Origin: a phage | Strand: one strand, 5' to 3' | DNA: 39,736 nt | Sequence record: PZ379179.1 | Shown here: one piece after another, positions 1-39,736 of the stretch | Layout: each line of letters opens with the position of its first letter | Numbering within the stretch: the first letter of the stretch is position 1 | Made by a program: the position numbers and the translations under genes | Notes under the pieces: model-generated | Databases searched by the model: none | What the model was told of the DNA's origin: nothing | Seen by the model: only the letters and a program-made list of their open reading frames with translations

Positions 1-161
1 CCTCAAGTCTCCCCATAGGCCCTCTTTAAGTCAAGACCAAAGGCCCTACCCATAGACCTTCGGTCTAAACTTCAGGTCATTGACTCAAGGTTGACCAAAA
101 GTCATGACGATAGGTCTAGGCTATGGCTTAGGGAAGGACGATAGGTAGGGACTATTGGTCT
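1..161. repeat. Left direct terminal repeat (161 bp)
   Basis: Bases 1-161 are identical to 39576-39736 (CCTCAAGTCTCCCCATAGG...GGGACTATTGGTCT); T7-like genomes carry ~160-bp direct terminal repeats. Confidence 0.9.
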
Positions 162-164
162 GTC

Positions 165-340
165 TTTGAGTCTCTATCTGTATAACCATAAGTCACAACC
201 ATAGGTCACAGCCTACCTCTCACAACCATAAGTCATAACCTACAGTCTCACTAACCTACAGTCTCAACCATAAGACACCAACACCTACAGTCATAGACCT
301 ACAGTTAATAGACACAAGGCTATAGACTTAAGGTCTAAGA
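165..340. repeat. Array of short degenerate direct repeats inside the left end
   Basis: Reiterated units such as AACCATAAGTCA and CCTACAGTC (e.g. 195-310); no coding signal. Comparable to T7 end-proximal short repeats. Confidence 0.5.
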
Positions 341-2905: not shown

Positions 2906-5587
2906 ATGAGCGTCATCTCTATTGACAAGCACGACTTCTCTGATGTATCGAACGCCATTGAGCCGTTTAACCTACTGGCTGACCACTACGGGCAAGACCT
3001 TGCAGTCAAACAGCTTCAGCTTGAGCACGAGGCATACACTGAAGGCGAGCGACGTTTCATCAAGAACCTTGAGAGACAGACTGAGCGAGGGGAACTGGCA
3101 GACAATCAGGTCGCCAAGCCTTTGATGCAGACTCTGGTCCCTAAGATTGCGCAAGCCGTCAAGGAGTGGCATGAAGGTCCAGACGGGAAGCTGTCAACCT
3201 CTCGTCCGAGCGTAGCGTTCACCATGTTGAGCACTGAAGAGAAGGCCGTAAAGGTCCGCTCTTTGCGCATCTCCTGCGAGTCTGCTGCGGTTATCATACT
3301 GAAGGTCATACTCTCCAAGCTGGTCAAGCCTGAAGGGATACCGATTACACCGATGGCCTCAGCGATAGGTCGCACACTTGAGGACGAAATCCGCTTCGGT
3401 CGCATCCGTGACAAGGAGAAAGAGCACTTCAAGAAGGCGATAGCTGATAACCTGAATAAGCGGGCCGGGGCGTCCTACAAGAAAGCCTACATGCAAGCGG
3501 TCGAGGCATCCATGCTGGAGCAAGGCCAACTGGAAGATGCGTGGGGGACTTGGAGTCCGACCGAGGCTGTCCACGTTGGAATCAAGATGCTGGAGATTGT
3601 CATCCAGTCCACACAACTGGTCGAGCTTAAGCGTTACGGTGCTGGCAATGCAGCGGCTGACGTTGAGATGGTCCACCTGTCAGACTTCTGGGTCAAGAAG
3701 ATGGCACAACGAGGATTCAGCCTTGCGGGTATAGCTCCAGTCTACCAGCCTTGCGTCGTTCCACCTAAGCCGTGGACTGGTGTCGTAGGCGGTGGGTACT
3801 GGGCCAAAGGACGCAGACCATTACCACTGATTCGCTTAGGGTCTAAGTCTGCGGTAGCACGCTACGAAGACGTGTATATGCCTGAAGTCTATGACGCTGT
3901 GAACATCATTCAGAATACACCTTGGAAAGTGAACAAGAAGGTTCTGGAAGTGGTGAACATGGTCGAGAAGCTGAACAACACGCCTATTGATGACATCCCT
4001 CAGATGGAACCGCTGAAGCCTGAGGACTATGCGGGTGAGACTGAAGAAGAACTCAAGGCATGGAAGAAGGCTGCTGCTGGTATCTATCGCCGCGAGAAGG
4101 CCAGACAGTCACGAAGATTGTCACTGAGCTTTATCGTCAACCAAGCGAACAAGTTCTCTCAGTTCAAGGCCATCTGGTTCCCGTATAACATGGACTGGCG
4201 CGGTCGCGTCTACGCTGTGCCGATGTTCAACCCTCAGGGTAACGACATGCAAAAGGGTCTTCTGACTCTGGCAGTCGGTAAGCCTATTGGTGCTGATGGT
4301 TTCAAATGGCTGAAGGTCCACGGTGCAAACTGCGCGGGTGTCGATAAAGTCACCTTCGAGGAGCGTATCAAGTGGGTGGAAGATAACCACGAAAACATCA
4401 TGGCTGCTGCCAAGGCACCGATGGATAGCATTGAGTGGTGGGGCAAGTTAGACTCTCCGTTCTGCTTCCTAGCGTTCTGCTTCGAGTATGCTGGCGTAAT
4501 GCACCACGGCTTGTCTTACTCCTGCTCGCTGCCGATAGCGTTCGATGGGTCCTGCTCTGGGATTCAGCACTTCAGCGCTATGCTTCGCGACCACATCGGT
4601 GGACATGCAGTAAACCTGACGCCATCCGGTAAGGTACAAGACATCTACCGAATTGTGTCTGACCGCATTGAGGAGCAGCTTAAAGTCCTGCTGATTAACG
4701 GTACTGACAACGAGATGGTCACTCACGAGGATAAGAAAACTGGTGAGATTACCGAACGTATCAAGCTGGGGACACGAGAGCTGGCCCGTCAGTGGCTGAC
4801 ATACGGTATGTCACGCAAGGTCACTAAGCGTTCAGTCATGACTCTGGCATACGGGTCGAAAGAGTACGGCTTCGCAGACCAAGTTTACGAGGACATCGTG
4901 ATGCCAGCGATTGACTCAGGGTATGGCGCTATGTTCACCGAGCCAAGCCAAGCGTCTCGATTCATGGCTAAGATGATTTGGGAAGCTGTGAGTGTGACCG
5001 TAGTTGCTGCGGTTGACGCGATGAAGTGGCTTCAAGGTGCTGCCAAGCTGCTGGCTGCTGAAGTGAAGGACAAGAAGACTGGCGAAATCCTGAAGCCATG
5101 CCTTCCGGTACACTGGGTAACACCTGATGGTTTCCCTGTCTGGCAGGAATACCGCAAGAAGGATACCACTCGTCTGAACCTGATGTTCTTAGGGTCATTC
5201 AACCTTCAGCCTACAGTCAACAAAGGAACGAAGAAAGAGCTTGACAAGCACAAGCAGGAGTCAGGCATTAGCCCTAACTTCGTCCACTCACAAGATGGTA
5301 GCCACCTGCGGAAGACTGTAGTCCACACTCACCGCAAGTATGGCGTGATGTCATTCGCAGTGATTCACGATAGCTTCGGGACCATCCCTGCTGACGCTGA
5401 GTATCTGTTCCGTGGTGTCCGTGAGACGATGGTCGAGACATACCGCGATAATGATGTGCTGCTTGACTTCTACGAGCAGTTCGAATACCAGCTTCATGAA
5501 AGTCAGCGCGACAAGTTGCCTGAGCTTCCGAAGAAAGGTAAACTGAATATCGAAGACATCTTGTCTTCAGACTTTGCATTCGCTTAA
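2906..5587 (+). CDS. Single-subunit DNA-directed RNA polymerase (T7 gene 1 homolog)
   Basis: 893 aa; collinear with recalled T7 RNAP, including AFDGSCSGIQHFSAMLRD, VIHDSFGTIPAD and the C-terminal DFAFA. AAGGA RBS 8 nt upstream. Confidence 0.97.
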   Translation: MSVISIDKHDFSDVSNAIEPFNLLADHYGQDLAVKQLQLEHEAYTEGERRFIKNLERQTERGELADNQVAKPLMQTLVPKIAQAVKEWHEGPDGKLSTSRPSVAFTMLSTEEKAVKVRSLRISCESAAVIILKVILSKLVKPEGIPITPMASAIGRTLEDEIRFGRIRDKEKEHFKKAIADNLNKRAGASYKKAYMQAVEASMLEQGQLEDAWGTWSPTEAVHVGIKMLEIVIQSTQLVELKRYGAGNAAADVEMVHLSDFWVKKMAQRGFSLAGIAPVYQPCVVPPKPWTGVVGGGYWAKGRRPLPLIRLGSKSAVARYEDVYMPEVYDAVNIIQNTPWKVNKKVLEVVNMVEKLNNTPIDDIPQMEPLKPEDYAGETEEELKAWKKAAAGIYRREKARQSRRLSLSFIVNQANKFSQFKAIWFPYNMDWRGRVYAVPMFNPQGNDMQKGLLTLAVGKPIGADGFKWLKVHGANCAGVDKVTFEERIKWVEDNHENIMAAAKAPMDSIEWWGKLDSPFCFLAFCFEYAGVMHHGLSYSCSLPIAFDGSCSGIQHFSAMLRDHIGGHAVNLTPSGKVQDIYRIVSDRIEEQLKVLLINGTDNEMVTHEDKKTGEITERIKLGTRELARQWLTYGMSRKVTKRSVMTLAYGSKEYGFADQVYEDIVMPAIDSGYGAMFTEPSQASRFMAKMIWEAVSVTVVAAVDAMKWLQGAAKLLAAEVKDKKTGEILKPCLPVHWVTPDGFPVWQEYRKKDTTRLNLMFLGSFNLQPTVNKGTKKELDKHKQESGISPNFVHSQDGSHLRKTVVHTHRKYGVMSFAVIHDSFGTIPADAEYLFRGVRETMVETYRDNDVLLDFYEQFEYQLHESQRDKLPELPKKGKLNIEDILSSDFAFA

Positions 5588-25979: not shown

Positions 25980-26003
25980 CTTATTGAAGGGCCTATAGAT
26001 TTA

Positions 26004-26026
26004 CCTTAACTATCACTATAGGGACT
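26004..26026 (+). promoter_or_regulatory. Phage RNAP promoter (phi13-like)
   Basis: CTTAACTATCACTATAGGGACT; predicted +1 G at 26021. Confidence 0.75.
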
Positions 26027-26055
26027 ATAGGCCCTTAAGGTTATAAGGAGACTTT

Positions 26056-36224: not shown

Positions 36225-36671
36225 ATGCTCGAATTTTTAAAGAGAGCGGCTCCGTGGTTACTTTCAGCAGTGATATTTGCTGGTGGCTACCACACCGCTA
36301 ACAATAAGTGGGAGGCTAAGGTCAATGCAGAATACACCTCGAATCTTAAGGCATCGGAGGATACAAGACTTGCTGTCCAAGCTGAAGTCAACAAAGTGTC
36401 CAAACGGTTTCAGGACGAAATGTCCTCGCTGGAAGGCAGCACTGATAGGATTATTGCTGACCTTCAGTCTGACAATAAGCGGTTGCGCATCCGAGTCAAA
36501 CCTACGAGTGGAACCACGCAAAGTGACGGTCGATGCGTCATTGATGGTTACGCCGAACTTGACGAACGAGATGCTAAACGTCTTATCGCCATCGGAGTGA
36601 AAGGAGACAAATGGATTAAGGCGCTTCAGGACACTGTGAGAGCCTTGCAGCAAGATAAGGAGGCCCAATGA
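36225..36671 (+). CDS. i-spanin, Rz-like (T7 gp18.5 homolog)
   Basis: 148 aa; MLEFLKRAAPWLL...LEGSTDRIIADLQSDNKRLRIRVK...LDERDAKRLIA...GDKWIKALQDTVRALQ matches T7 gp18.5; N-terminal TM segment. Confidence 0.9.
   Translation: MLEFLKRAAPWLLSAVIFAGGYHTANNKWEAKVNAEYTSNLKASEDTRLAVQAEVNKVSKRFQDEMSSLEGSTDRIIADLQSDNKRLRIRVKPTSGTTQSDGRCVIDGYAELDERDAKRLIAIGVKGDKWIKALQDTVRALQQDKEAQ
36325..36600 (+). CDS. o-spanin, Rz1-like lipoprotein embedded in the +1 frame of the i-spanin gene
   Basis: Track ORF 36277..36600 in an alternative frame inside gp18.5; contains a lipobox-like LTISGC after a hydrophobic stretch LIGLLLTFS. Start uncertain (first ATG at 36325). Confidence 0.45.
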   Translation: MQNTPRILRHRRIQDLLSKLKSTKCPNGFRTKCPRWKAALIGLLLTFSLTISGCASESNLRVEPRKVTVDASLMVTPNLTNEMLNVLSPSE

Positions 36672-37108
36672 TGCTCAGTGATTCGTATGTCTATGATGAG
36701 TCCAGTAAGTCTGGCCTGAAGTCCCTGCGTTCTGGTAAGGACGTGGGGTGTGTGGGAAACCACGGGTATTATCAGGTAGGAACTCGACGTCATGGACTCC
36801 TACTGGCCCATAGAGTCGTCTGGGAACTAACCCACGGTCCTATACCAGAAGGTATGGAGATTGACCATATTGACCGCTGCCGGACTAACAACAGGCTGGA
36901 CAACCTCCGGCTAGTTACTTCAAGCGAGAACTCCTGCAACACCTCAGGACATTCTGACTCAAAGACTGGAGTTAAGAACATATCGTTCCATCAGAATGGC
37001 TACGCTATCGAGGTCATGCGTAAGGGAGTCCGTATGCGAACAACACGTCCTACTTTAGAGGAGGCTATCTCTGTCCGGGACCTAATGCTGGAGGGACTCT
37101 ATGTCTAA
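36668..37108 (+). CDS. HNH homing-type endonuclease (copy B, paralog of 7708..8118)
   Basis: 146 aa; [13 protein letters not shown]...[41 protein letters not shown], about 60% identical to copy A across the core. Overlaps the gp18.5 stop and the terminase start. Confidence 0.8.
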
Positions 37109-38867
37109 GAAAACACCTGCTGAAAGACAGGCTGAAATGACCCAAAGGATGAGGGACGACTTCGTGTTCTTCATCTTCGTTCTCTGGAAAGCTCTTAGCC
37201 TTCCGGTTCCAACCCGCTGCCAGATAGATATGTGTAAGAAGCTGGCTGCTGGGGATAATCGCCGCTTCATCCTTCAGGCTTTCCGTGGTATTGGTAAGTC
37301 GTTTCTGACCTGTGGTTTCGTGGTCTGGAAGCTATGGAACAACCCAGACTTGAAGTTCATGATTGTGTCGGCCTCAAAGGAACGAGCTGATGCTAACTCC
37401 ATCTTCATCAAGCGAATCATCGACCTCATGCCTCAGCTTCAGGAACTCAAACCTAAGCAGGGACAGCGAGATGCGGTTATCAGCTTCGACGTTGGTCCCG
37501 CCAAGCCAGACCACTCACCTTCGGTTAAGTCCGTTGGTATCACTGGTCAGTTGACTGGTAGTCGTGCTGACATCCTGATTGCTGATGACGTGGAGGTTCC
37601 GAACAACTCAGCGACTCAGGCTGCCCGGGACCGTCTGTCAGAGCTTGTGAAAGAGTTCGACGCTATCCTGAAGCCTGGAGGTACAATCATCTATCTGGGT
37701 ACTCCTCAGAACGAGATGACCCTATACCGTGAGCTGGAAGGTCGTGGGTACACCACTACTATCTGGCCCGCTCGTTATCCACGCGACAGGAAGGACTGGC
37801 AGTCTTACGGCGACCGTCTGGCTCCTATGCTTCAGGCAGAGCTGGAAGAGGACCCTGAGTCCTTCTACTGGCGTCCGACTGATGAAGTACGCTTCGATGA
37901 TACGGACCTGAAGGAACGTGAGCTGTCCTACGGTAAAGCTGGCTTCGCTCTACAGTTCATGCTTAACCCTAACCTGAGTGATGCCGAGAAGTACCCTCTG
38001 AAGCTCCGTGACCTTATCGTAGCAGACTTGGACCCAGCGTCTAGCCCAATGGTCTACCAATGGCTTCCTAACCCTCAGAACAAGCGTGAGGACGTTCCTA
38101 ACGTTGGACTCATGGGTGACTCGTACCACACGTATCAGACTGTAGGCTCTGCCTTCAGCGCGTACACTCAGAAGATTCTGGTCATTGACCCTAGTGGTCG
38201 TGGTAAGGATGAGACTGGCTACGCTGTTCTGTACCAGCTCAACGGCTACATCTTCGTGATGGAAGCTGGTGGTATGCGCGGTGGGTATGAGGACTCTACG
38301 CTGGAAGCACTGGCTAAGATTGGTCGTAAGTGGAAGGTCAACGAATACGTCATTGAGGGTAACTTCGGTGATGGTATGTACCTTGAGCTATTCAAGCCTG
38401 TAGCGGCCCGTATACATCCTGCTGCTGTAACTGAAGTGAAGAGTAAGGGTCAGAAAGAACTCCGCATCTGTGACGTTCTGGAGCCTATCATGGGGTCTCA
38501 CCGACTTATCGTCAACGCTGCTGCTATCGTCCAAGACTACCAGTCGGCCTCTGATAAGGATGGTGTTCGTAACCCTATCTACTCTCTCTTCTACCAGATG
38601 ACACGTATCTCTCGTGAACGTGGAGCCTTGGCACACGATGACAGACTTGATGCTCTGGCTATCGGTGTACAGTTCTTCGTTGAGTCTATGGCTAAGGATG
38701 CCAACAAAGGCGAACGTGAAGTCACTGAGGAGTGGCTGGAGGAACAGATGGAGAACCCACGGAAAGGCTTCGAGTCCATCCACACTGAGTTCTGGGACAA
38801 TGGGGTCCGGGTGACTCACGATACGGACGACGAGCTGGGACTAGGGTCCTACGTTACGTTCCACTAG
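37101..38867 (+). CDS. Terminase large subunit / DNA maturation protein B (T7 gene 19 homolog)
   Basis: 588 aa; Walker A-like [10 protein letters not shown], ATPase and nuclease regions; position and size match T7 gp19. GGAGGGA RBS. Confidence 0.95.
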
Positions 38868-38961
38868 CTGAATGAATAACTATAGGCGAAAACTGAGTTA
38901 ATAAGCAGTTAGTAACCTATAGTTACTACCAGTCTAACCTACTGTTTTACAAGGAGTTTGG

Positions 38962-38984
38962 ACTTAACTATCACTATAGGGAAG
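38962..38984 (+). promoter_or_regulatory. Phage RNAP promoter near the right end (phiOR-like)
   Basis: CTTAACTATCACTATAGGGAAGA; flanked by degenerate promoter-like palindromes (AACTATAGGCG, AACCTATAGTTACT, TATTACTATAGTGAAT). Confidence 0.7.
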
Positions 38985-39163
38985 ACCCCCGGTTACTTAT
39001 AGTATTACTATAGTGAATATACATATGCAGACTTTATGCAAGACCTTAGGAGGCAGACTCCGAGTTCTTACCTAAGGCTTGCACCGATGGGAGGAGGTGA
39101 TATTAATCATAATACCTCCAATACAGATAGTCACAGACCATAGATACAGGAGGTATGTAGCAT

Positions 39164-39322
39164 ATGGCAAAGACCAAAGCTGTACTTAAAGCTCTGGCGA
39201 CCAATCGAGCTACATACAGGTTTCTTGCTGCTGTTCTACTTGCTGCTGGCGCTACTACTGGAAGTCAGTGGGTCGGGTGGGTCGAGACTCTCGTATGTTC
39301 TCTGGTGTCTGAGTGTCGTTAA
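39164..39322 (+). CDS. gp19.5-like small protein (52 aa)
   Basis: ATG with GGAGG 10 nt upstream; MAKTKAVLKALATNRATYRFLAAVLLAAGATTGSQWVGWVETLVCSLVSECR. Last ORF before the right terminal repeat, as T7 gene 19.5. Below the track size cut-off. Confidence 0.45.
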   Translation: MAKTKAVLKALATNRATYRFLAAVLLAAGATTGSQWVGWVETLVCSLVSECR

Positions 39323-39352
39323 CGCCGTAATGGTAACAATCAACGAAAGCAA

Positions 39353-39397
39353 GACCTAAGGTCAGTTCATAGCTGACGCTACTCTACTGACCTTAGC
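39353..39397. repeat. Inverted repeat / hairpin (10-bp stem) downstream of the last gene
   Basis: CCTAAGGTCAG (39355-39365) pairs with CTGACCTTAG (39387-39396) around a 21-nt loop; no U-tract follows, so it is not a classic terminator. Confidence 0.4.
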
Positions 39398-39439
39398 TAC
39401 TGTAGTCAAGGACTTTAGGTAACACCTTAATAGAAGCTC

Positions 39440-39575
39440 ACTTAGGGTCATCCTACTTATTGGTCTATCCTAGTGTCGCCTGACCTACGGTCCTTGACCT
39501 ACAGTGGCTGTGGCCTACAGTAGTGACGATGAGTTTTGGACCAAAAGTTTGAGACCACATCTCACAGTTCAAGAA
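39440..39575. repeat. Short degenerate direct repeats inside the right end
   Basis: Reiterated CCTACAGT / CCTACGGT / GACCTAC units (e.g. 39481-39535), mirroring the array at the left end. Confidence 0.45.
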
Positions 39576-39736
39576 CCTCAAGTCTCCCCATAGGCCCTCT
39601 TTAAGTCAAGACCAAAGGCCCTACCCATAGACCTTCGGTCTAAACTTCAGGTCATTGACTCAAGGTTGACCAAAAGTCATGACGATAGGTCTAGGCTATG
39701 GCTTAGGGAAGGACGATAGGTAGGGACTATTGGTCT
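39576..39736. repeat. Right direct terminal repeat (161 bp)
   Basis: Identical to bases 1-161. Confidence 0.9.

Follow-up and report, generated by a model that had tools for sequence, protein, structure and literature searches.

The right end of the phage genome PZ379179.1 is probably the left flank of a concatemer junction and an element-by-element homologue of the T7 right end, as judged from its sequence and that of its relatives. The phage is a K1F-like Kayfunavirus of the T7 family. The stretch of DNA analysed here, called the window, covers 39,736 nt, and the right ends of K1F and other Kayfunavirus phages show 94-95% nucleotide identity to it. From left to right, the region contains the terminase stop, the hairpin H1, a phiOR-type promoter, an A+T-rich leader, the hairpin H2, gene 19.5, the inverted repeat H3 and short direct repeats. 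These are followed by a cut-site box, the terminal repeat starting with TCTCACAG, and TATCTGTAT at the far repeat boundary (Table 1). The terminase gene, phiOR, gene 19.5 and the terminal repeat lie on one strand in the order of the T7 group, when compared with the records of T7, T3, K11, BA14 and gh-1. Every right-end element is kept in the relatives. The pairing of H1, H2 and H3 is retained while their stem sequences change, and the non-coding stretch is conserved above the end of the terminase gene among the relatives compared. Such a control region is ordinary for a K1F-like phage, and is expected rather than surprising. The packaging and replication roles suggested for its elements are read from T7.

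An initial annotation of this DNA described a T7-type right end with a promoter, a gp19.5 ORF, a hairpin and repeats. Positional counterparts of all of these were found in T7, and the promoter, the gp19.5 gene, the hairpin and the short repeats are retained in the relatives. Each of the features it listed is present, but the coordinates of some are off by a few bases, and H2, the cut-site box and the pause-like TATCTGTAT had been missed.

Table 1. Elements of the right end and of the matching left end of the window.
Feature	Position	Strand	Description
Terminase large subunit (gp19)	37101-38867	+	588-aa ORF; Pfam PF22530 T7 terminase RNaseH-like domain, E 1e-37
H1 stem-loop	38877-38925	+	outer arms 38877-38886 and 38916-38925; inner stem 38891-38895 with 38906-38910
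phiOR-type phage-RNAP promoter	38963-38985	+	19/20 match to consensus; +1 inferred at G 38979
A+T-rich leader	38986-39089	+	non-coding, almost invariant; boxes GGTTACTTATAGTA and CATATGCAGACTTTATGCAAGACCTTAG, stem CCTTAGG/CCTAAGG
Leader box GGTTACTTATAGTA	38991-39004	+	
Leader box CATATGCAGACTTTATGCAAGACCTTAG	39022-39049	+	
Invariant leader stem CCTTAGG/CCTAAGG	39044-39050 with 39071-39077		
H2 stem-loop	39090-39119	+	GGAGG(T)...(A)CCTCC, upstream of gene 19.5
gp19.5 homologue	39164-39322	+	52 aa, small hydrophobic protein; PHROG 2193
H3 two-tier inverted repeat	39356-39396 (arms 39356-39366 and 39386-39396)		outer 11-bp stem CTAAGGTCAGT/ACTGACCTTAG
Right short-repeat array	39397-39539	+	CCTACRG at 39484, 39498 and 39514; spacing 14-16 bp; degenerate copies nearer H3
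Cut-site box ACCAAAAGTTTGAGACCACA	39540-39559	+	adjoins the inferred left-end cut on its left
Right copy of direct terminal repeat	39560-39736	+	probable start, placed by homology with phages of recorded ends
Left copy of terminal repeat	1-175	+	first 16 nt missing from the record
Pause-like TATCTGTAT	175-183	+	right repeat boundary; 6/7 bases of T7 class II ATCTGTT
Left short-repeat array	186-305	+	8 copies of CC(TAC/ATA)RG

In the record, the exact terminal repeat measures 161 bp (1-161 = 39576-39736), and the repeat had been taken to start at 39576. By homology with K1F and Citrobacter phage SH4, its physical start probably lies at 39560 (TCTCACAG...), 16 nt to the left of that position. 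The ends of SH4 were mapped by run-off sequencing and gave a 190-bp repeat (PMC4925675). The repeats of K1F and SH4 begin with TCTCACAGTTCAAGAA and end with ...GAGTC(T/C)C(T), and the 30 nt preceding their recorded starts are identical to window 39530-39559. The full repeat would measure 190-191 bp, made up of 39560-39736 and a further 13-14 nt equal to window 162-175, and the record appears to be trimmed by 16 nt at the left and 13-14 nt at the right. The T7-group box AAAA(A/G)T(C/T)TGAG-N7 before a TCTCAYAG repeat start was also found in the window. The form AAAAATCTGAG-N7-TCTCAYAG is conserved across genera and here occupies 39540-39567, and a small dyad, GAGA-N5-TCTC, spans the inferred cut. 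A palindrome by the cut site, TTTTGGACCAAAA (39534-39546), was rejected as an element; its folding z-score is -0.7, and L016 and L025 do not preserve it.

At the far boundary of the repeat, T7 carries ATCTGTT at 161-167, directly past its 160-bp repeat. The T7 class II motif has been described as strictly ATCTGTT, with no change tolerated and A, C or T preceding it (bioRxiv 10.64898/2026.02.12.705533 and 10.1101/2021.01.11.426313). The window has T-ATCTGTA at this place, which departs from the strict form. It shares with the T7 class II signals (CJ, PTH and VSV) six of the seven core bases, the preceding T and the position at the right edge, but the seventh base is A instead of T and the polymerase here is of the K1F type. 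ATCTGTA occurs once on the + strand of the whole window, GAGTCTCTATCTGTAT is invariant in the Kayfunavirus relatives, and TATCTGT(T/A) is found at the same repeat boundary in L015, L019 and L023. By analogy with T7, ATCTGTA may work like the CJ pause site for a K1F-type polymerase.

Short direct repeats are present on both sides of the terminal repeat, and the copies at the right end match those at the left end as had been proposed. CCTACAGT has 14 copies in the window (1.8 ± 1.4 expected), among them two right-end copies (39498 and 39514) and four left-end copies (239, 255, 284 and 298). The left array has its copies at 186, 199, 226, 239, 255, 268, 284 and 298, with gaps of 13-27 bp, five of the seven being 13-16 bp. 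At both ends, the - strand is free of the motif. In T7, 12 copies of the CCTAAAG type lie at 175-355, mostly with 13-bp spacing, and another five between gene 19.5 and the T7 repeat. The repeats flanking the terminal repeat at left and right may be arrays to which terminase binds.

The promoter was searched with a 20-nt consensus (CTAAACTATCACTATAGGGA, -17 to +3) derived from the window's own promoters. The consensus promoter claimed earlier at 38962 was confirmed at 38963-38982 with one mismatch, and is one of 11 such sites genome-wide, all on the + strand, against 0 expected. A phiOR-type promoter is present in all Kayfunavirus relatives (24 distinct ones compared), and phiOR is annotated at the equivalent position in the T7, T3, K11 and BA14 records. 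With one promoter compared per relative locus, L011 and L025 have a different phiOR specificity region, CCCTCACTATAGG. The search found no consensus promoter between the left repeat and position 2815, and no phiOL-type promoter near the left end. Sigma-70 promoters gave three weak matches against 1.1 expected, none of them compelling.

The leader downstream of phiOR is nearly 100% identical in 24 distinct relatives, and in T7, T3 and K11 the distance of TTACTATA(T)AG from +1 is the same as here. RNAalifold predicted 38 pairs over the whole phiOR leader with no covariation, which cannot be scored in this region because the sequence hardly varies. A 35-aa ORF in the leader (39036-39143) was rejected as non-coding, with no PHROG match and a frame broken by 1-nt indels in the relatives. 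As in the primary and secondary replication origins of T7, a phage promoter is followed by an A+T-rich tract (35-37% GC around 38850-39060), but the leader here is much more constrained in sequence than A+T-richness alone demands.

The ORF between phiOR and the repeat is indeed gp19.5-like. A profile search matched residues 2-51 to PHROG 2193 (E 1.2e-23), which the gp19.5 proteins of T7, T3, K11 and gh-1 also match, and BLASTP gave 33% identity with T7 gp19.5 (E 3e-5). AGGAGGT stands upstream of the ATG. No match to this protein was found in Pfam, and its tblastn matches in the phage collection were confined to Kayfunavirus. H2 folds weakly by itself (z-score -2.0). When each sequence was folded separately, a hairpin was found at the H2 position with other stems, which are GGAGGG/CCCTCC and GAGGGTG/CACCCTC in relatives, GGTGAT/ATCACC in T7 and T3, GAGGGT/ACCCTC in K11, AGGGATG/CATCCCT in BA14 and TGCACGA/TCGTGCA in gh-1. 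RNAalifold recovered the invariant inner stem of H2 alone, from an alignment with a misplaced indel.

H3 is the hairpin that had been placed at 39355-39396; it is present, but its outer stem is 11 bp rather than 10 bp. The 19-nt spacer holds an inner stem of 4 bp. The folding z-scores are -4.6 as DNA and -5.3 as RNA, and none of 200 shuffles was as good. Across 24 Kayfunavirus relatives the arms are invariant and the spacer is variable. By position and shape, H3 corresponds to the T7 inverted repeat at 39568-39608, and similar hairpins are found in T3, K11, BA14, gh-1 and IMG/VR contigs. Eight different versions of the outer stem occur in the relatives, all with Watson-Crick pairs and without any G.U pair. 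Genera were compared by per-sequence folding and by counting pairs within groups. Four pairs are changed on both sides in the gh-1 group (1.2 ± 0.9 when shuffled, 0-1 in slid controls), and four in T7/T3/K11 (versus 1.3 ± 0.9). A cross-genus MAFFT/RNAalifold run on H3 predicted nothing, the arms being out of register in the alignment. The centre of H3 lies 184 bp from the inferred repeat start at 39560, compared with 190 bp in T7 (repeat start 39778), 184 bp in T3, 186 bp in SH4 and 184 bp in K1F. The distance varies across genera, with 145 bp in K11, 168.5 bp in BA14 and 170 bp in gh-1.

With T7 and T3 as models, the junction may be processed as follows. Phage RNA polymerase would start at 38979 and move to the right, transcribing gene 19.5, H3 and the repeat, before pausing at the class-II-like signal immediately beyond the repeat. 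The paused polymerase would help to bring terminase (gp18/gp19) and the prohead to the junction, where terminase would cut at the box to give the left end at 39560. The promoter and the A+T-rich leader could double as a secondary replication origin. T3 and T7 have promoters within their packaging recognition sites, and their repeat undergoes selective replication (PMC1828717). The repeat copy must be duplicated, because the concatemer has one copy per junction. A hairpin end is said to have been assigned to terminal-repeat duplication by Chung, Nardone and Hinkle in 1990, and from its reported location in T7 we take H3 to be the candidate DNA hairpin for duplicating the repeat copy. The wider proposal, that H3 is a DNA-level hairpin-end site maintained by selection and priming repeat duplication across Studiervirinae and that the nearly invariant leader is a second cis-acting loading site, is put forward tentatively. 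With its 19-nt spacer, H3 would not readily extrude as a cruciform from duplex DNA, which counts against a DNA role.

Alternatively, staggered nicks at both boundaries of the terminal repeat might start strand-displacement synthesis that duplicates it, with H3 and the short repeats dispensable for the ends. This mechanism has been stated for T3 and T7 (PMC5557969), and no sequences of the junction are more widely conserved than the cut-site box and the boundary motif. However, it leaves unexplained why all the lineages examined retain, between gene 19.5 and the repeat, a structured inverted repeat that shows compensatory changes. Staggered nicking is considered a possible but somewhat unlikely explanation.

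The hairpins might also act purely as RNA elements of the late or phiOR transcripts, in 3'-end protection, as processing sites or in translation control of gene 19.5, with no part in DNA packaging. H1, H2 and H3 are all transcribed, downstream of phage promoters, and H3 could thus act as RNA. The outer stem of H1 is a perfect 10-bp inverted repeat just past the terminase stop, with folding z-scores of -4.3 as DNA and -3.6 as RNA. RNAalifold on 17 relatives gave 14 pairs for H1, five of them with compensatory changes. Because of these changes and the frequent G.U pairs, H1 is probably an RNA structure. G.U is tolerated in most relatives; three of the four kinds of single-sided change in H1 lead to G.U (L101/L108, L105/L109 and L107/L111), and the remaining kind, in L016, gives a U.U mismatch. 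H3 scores better as RNA than as DNA, and in the gh-1 record a nearby stem-loop past the 19.5 homologue is labelled a putative RNase III site. The RNase III sites of T7 are cut within irregular hairpins of about 20 bp; H1 and H3, each built in two tiers, span 15-19 bp. In contrast, the outer stems of H3 are Watson-Crick without G.U in eight lineages, which is unusual for an RNA stem. The Rfam 15 covariance models gave 0 matches at E ≤ 1 in 38700-39736, and 0 intrinsic (class I) terminators were found in the same interval, H1, H2 and H3 being without a U-tract. None of the ten mapped RNase III sites of T7 is known to lie after gene 19 or gene 19.5, which also counts against an RNA role. A purely RNA role for all the hairpins is doubtful; it is likely for H1, possible for H2, and the main competitor of the DNA-level reading for H3.

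The CTATAG sites near phiOR had been viewed as degenerate or decoy promoters that bind the phage RNA polymerase. CTATAG is present at 38880, 38917, 38974 and 39008 in the right-end region, and 20 times genome-wide against 8.6 ± 2.5 expected, with nine of the 20 inside promoters. Consistent with decoys, three non-promoter sites are clustered inside 140 nt, and a box similar to the promoter core, TTACTTATAG / TTACTATATAG, keeps the same +1 offset in T7, T3, K11 and Kayfunavirus. However, these non-promoter sites all differ from the 20-nt consensus at more than 3 positions. One hairpin accounts for 38880 and 38917, which are the arms of H1; CTATAG stands on both arms because it is its own reverse complement, and the relatives swap it out but retain the pairing. 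Only 2 of the 22 distinct sequences compared, the window among them, carry the site at 39008, and the other 20 lack it. The palindromes thus exist as described but are not promoter relics, and a decoy function is very unlikely. A 9-bp inverted repeat between the promoter core and a downstream copy (38971-38979/39008-39016) was rejected, with the downstream CTATAG in only those 2 of 22.

That the right-end features are chance patterns in a non-coding spacer is hardly credible and already disfavoured by the conservation data. In its favour, lone 6-7-bp stems with 12-36-nt loops are fairly common by chance, the small palindrome at 39534-39546 does not reach significance and the 9-bp repeat is not conserved. 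Against it, H1 and H3 have z-scores of -4.3 to -5.3, the non-coding stretch outdoes the end of the terminase gene in conservation, and the covariation agrees with the cross-genus collinearity.

In a K1F-like phage, exact coordinates can now be given to phiOR, to gp19.5, to the three structured elements and to both the cut site and the repeat boundaries, with the ends placed by homology. Phages of the K1F type serve as agents against E. coli K1, and the non-coding stretch of about 700 bp, conserved above the terminase coding sequence, should be left intact when genomes are rebooted or circularised. The compensatory changes in H3 from T7 to gh-1 and K1F provide a clean disrupt-and-restore target for terminal-repeat duplication. 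If true, the DNA-level reading of H3 would make the 'hairpin end' model of 1990 general and testable.

K1F (DQ111067, AM084414) and SH4 (KU687350) have the same promoter, the same gp19.5 and identical H3 arms. In K1F and in contig L016, gene 19.5 and H3 are separated by an additional 76-bp insert containing a tiny ORF, which is absent here, and the K1F repeat is 178 bp long with an interior that differs from the window. The T7 nucleotide sequence is mostly unalignable with the window apart from short boxes. The promoter specificity region is CTATCACTATAGG here and CGACTCACTATAGG in T7, the short-repeat motif is CCTACAG/CCATAAG versus CCTAAAG, and the repeat probably measures 190-191 bp here versus 160 bp. 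H3 has the 11-bp stem CTAAGGTCAGT with a 19-nt spacer, whereas the T7 hairpin has AGGGAT and inner stems. The short repeats number 8 on the left (186-305) and 3 on the right (39484-39520), compared with 12 and 5 in T7, and lie on the + strand on both sides of the terminal repeat in both phages. The terminase stop is 112 nt from +1 here and 99 nt in T7, and the gene 19.5 stop is 34 nt and 30 nt from the hairpin, respectively. The T7 repeat likewise starts with TCTCACAG, (T)ATCTGT follows directly past the repeat in both, and all right-end elements have the same order and strand in T7 as they have here.

The right end of this phage DNA is of the standard T7-group type, in a new Kayfunavirus genome. 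Its 937 bases matched 223 phage records, with best identities of 94–95% and nearly all hits in Kayfunavirus (K1F-like, Autographiviridae/Studiervirinae), and no identical record was present in the phage collection searched with them. At the left end, LM33_P1 was the closest match (98.3%). Upstream of the terminase gene, an HNH_3 endonuclease ORF (36668–37108, 146 aa, Pfam E 2e-21), likely a homing endonuclease, follows an Rz-like lysis gene and runs 8 nt into the terminase gene.

Features of the right end and of the terminal-repeat boundary
Feature	Position	Strand	Description
Terminase large subunit	37101–38867		ORF, T7-type
Non-promoter CTATAG copies near phiOR (n=3)	38880, 38917, 39008
phiOR-type promoter	38963–38982	+	1 mismatch to window consensus CTAAACTATCACTATAGGGA
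gp19.5 homologue	39164–39322		52 aa; PHROG 2193, E 1e-23
H3 inverted repeat	39356–39366 and 39386–39396		11-bp arms, 19-nt spacer
TATCTGTAT	175–183		right boundary of inferred repeat

The promoter consensus, with up to 3 mismatches, was found at 11 sites in the window, all on the + strand, versus 0 expected. The consensus promoter that the initial annotation had placed near 38962 is present, and the T7, T3, K11 and BA14 records annotate phiOR at the corresponding place. By T7 numbering, its transcription would start at G 38979. In the right-end region no convincing sigma-70 promoter was found, and neither an Rfam family nor an intrinsic terminator is present. In the Kayfunavirus-like contigs L011/L093/L106 and L025/L104, ACCCTCACTATAGG replaces AACTATCACTATAGG at the phiOR position, a substitution that suggests recognition by a polymerase of another specificity, the right ends being otherwise much alike. 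Far from this region, a promoter-like site at 2815–2834 (CTTAACTATCACTATAGGAC, 3 mismatches) precedes ORF 2906–5587 (893 aa), a putative phage RNA polymerase gene by size and position only, by about 75 nt. If it is the polymerase gene, this promoter would allow the gene to be transcribed by its own product. Between the left repeat and 2815 no phage promoter was found, and therefore the genome is without an equivalent of T7 phiOL near the left end.

CTATAG occurs 20 times in the window (8.6 ± 2.5 expected), and 9 of the 20 copies are promoter cores. Around the promoter at 26005–26024, three copies fall within 40 nt (25993–26030), and a second ACTATAGG directly follows the core (GGGACTATAGGCCC). 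The copies near phiOR had been described as partial promoter-like palindromes. These sites exist, but the first two are arms of one hairpin, H1, in which pairing rather than sequence is kept, and the third CTATAG, within the palindromes read at 38995–39025, is found in just 2 of 22 distinct relatives. The other part of this third site, GGTTACTTATAGTA (38991–39004), is invariant in 24 relatives, and its counterpart in T7, T3 and K11 is TTACTATA(T)AG at the same offset from +1.

H1 is a perfect 10-bp inverted repeat of 38877–38886 (TAACTATAGG) with 38916–38925 (CCTATAGTTA), which folds with an inner 5-bp stem (z-scores −4.3 and −3.6). RNAalifold recovered it in 17 distinct relatives with 14 pairs, 5 of them changed on both sides (for example TAACTATGGG/CCCATAGTTA and ATACCTACGCA/TGCGTTAGGTAT). 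Single-sided changes in the outer stem are of four kinds, of which three lead to G.U and one, in L016, to a U.U mismatch. In the inner stem most sequences use G.U. What is conserved is therefore the pairing rather than CTATAG itself, and a single hairpin explains both palindromes, CTATAG being self-complementary. The G.U pattern suggests that H1 works as RNA.

The non-coding leader after phiOR (38982–39100) is A+T-rich (35–37% GC) and nearly invariant, and varies less than the terminase gene does at its 3' end. Like H2, the cut-site box and TATCTGTAT described below, it was absent from the initial list of features. The loci compared were picked by an 18-nt leader pattern, itself invariant by construction, and the same conservation was observed in an independent, terminase-selected set of relatives. 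Such extreme leader conservation may be new to description. The stem-loop H2 (about 39090–39119), upstream of gene 19.5, reappears with other stem sequences in subgroups of Kayfunavirus and in T7, T3, K11, BA14 and gh-1. RNAalifold also paired 38985–38993 (ACCCCCGGT, phiOR transcript start) with 39144–39152 (ACAGGAGGT, gene 19.5 Shine-Dalgarno region); no covariation was found for this predicted pairing, which is weakened in two relatives and is unsupported. The proposed gp19.5-like ORF was confirmed by its PHROG match, and gp19.5 of T7, T3, K11 and gh-1 match the same family. The window and T7 proteins share an (R/K)xTYRFL motif and a C-terminal Cys.

The hairpin reported at 39355–39396 is real, but the stem of H3 is 11 bp and not 10 (z-scores −4.6 as DNA and −5.3 as RNA). 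Its T7 counterpart is the inverted repeat at 39568–39608 (L003 1169–1209). H3 and its counterparts all fold as the same two-tier hairpin (z-scores −2.4 to −5.2); in all of them the spacer is G-poor in its 3' half (..CACTCTAC..) and a (T)AGAGTCAA-type box follows. The eight outer stems differ wholly by lineage (CTAAGGTCAGT, AGGGAT, AGTGATTAT, GCTCAAT, GCTCAAC, GCTCAAG, GTCCAAT, AGGATTA), and every pair is Watson-Crick, without G.U. Outer-helix pairing reaches 100% in the gh-1 group, with 4 both-sided pair changes versus 1.2 ± 0.9 in shuffles and 0–1 in slid controls; T7/T3/K11 also gave 4, versus 1.3 ± 0.9. Within Kayfunavirus the spacer is variable and the arms are invariant. The cross-genus covariation that supports H1, H2 and H3 may be new to description. 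Downstream of the H3 equivalent, the gh-1 record annotates a stem-loop (L091 1001–1070, gh-1 37000–37069) as 'R13; putative RNase III recognition site', and thus other authors had already proposed that structures in this spacer take part in RNA processing. K1F (L002 850–925) and the IMG/VR contig L016 carry a 76-bp insertion between 39350 and 39351, downstream of gene 19.5 and ahead of H3; it includes a GGAGGT ribosome-binding site of its own and an acidic ORF of about 22 codons (MDEESYGSFSEEDYKTEWEYAH). The insertion lies just outside H3, and the H3-to-repeat distance is unaltered.

The terminal repeat is exact over 161 bp within the record, but its boundary is probably 39560 by homology with SH4 and K1F. 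K1F records have a 178-bp repeat that starts TCTCACAGTTCAAGAA and ends ...GTCTCTGAGTCTC. The repeat of Citrobacter phage SH4, whose ends were mapped by run-off sequencing of virion DNA (PMC4925675), is 190–191 bp, shares its first 16 bases with K1F and ends ...GAGTCCC(T). In the window, TCTCACAGTTCAAGAA is immediately left of the 161-bp repeat (39560–39575), GTCTTTGAGTCTC(T) is immediately right of the left copy (162–175), and 39530–39559 is identical to the 30 nt preceding the SH4 and K1F repeat start; the T7 repeat likewise starts TCTCACAG. These ends and matching flanks point to a physical repeat of probably 190–191 bp. The record appears trimmed, the left copy lacking its first 16 nt and the right copy its last 13–14 nt, and deposited relatives start at various offsets. 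A cut-site box, AAAA(A/G)T(C/T)TGAG-N7 preceding TCTCAYAG, is kept across genera. About 25 nt inside the repeat, the C-rich motif CCCC(C)ATAGG(G/C)CC (39583–39597) is conserved from T7 to gh-1.

Where the inferred repeat has its right boundary, TATCTGTAT is invariant in the genus, and three contigs that are more distant carry it at this boundary too; in T7, the terminal repeat is immediately followed by ATCTGTT. ATCTGTA has a single copy on the window + strand. A class II signal consists of ATCTGTT with A, C or T as the base before it (bioRxiv 10.64898/2026.02.12.705533; 10.1101/2021.01.11.426313), and the window site fails strict membership by one base. The only other genome copy of TATCTGTAT (39121–39129, − strand), directly 3' of H2 and confined to a K1F-proximal subgroup of relatives, is possibly due to chance.

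Short repeats common to both ends, as initially noticed, were recovered: CCTACAGT has 14 copies versus 1.8 expected, 2 at the right end and 4 at the left. CC(TAC/ATA)RG has 8 copies at 186–305 (gaps 13–27 bp, most 13–16 bp) and 3 at 39484–39520; all of these are + strand copies, and the − strand carries none at either end. The corresponding two stretches of T7 contain 12 and 5 CCTAAAG-type copies, and more distant relatives flank the repeat on both sides with their own motif, such as CCTAATG.

In T3 and T7 the packaging recognition sites contain embedded promoters, and selective replication of the repeat precedes cleavage (PMC1828717). In a competing model, staggered nicks and 3' extension duplicate the repeat (PMC5557969). 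By homology, transcription from 38979 would run across the repeat, the polymerase would pause near 175–190, the terminase would cut at 39560 and the repeat would be duplicated after this cut. The hairpin follows the gene 19.5 stop by 30 nt in T7 and 34 nt in the window. Chung, Nardone and Hinkle (J Mol Biol 1990) reportedly mapped, in T7, a right end formed by a hairpin and lying about 190 bp to the left of the repeat; if so, H3 would be the equivalent site. From hairpin centre to repeat start, the distance is 190 bp in T7, 184 in the window (to 39560), 184 in K1F, 186 in SH4 and 184 in T3, and is shorter in K11 (145), BA14 (168.5) and gh-1 (170).
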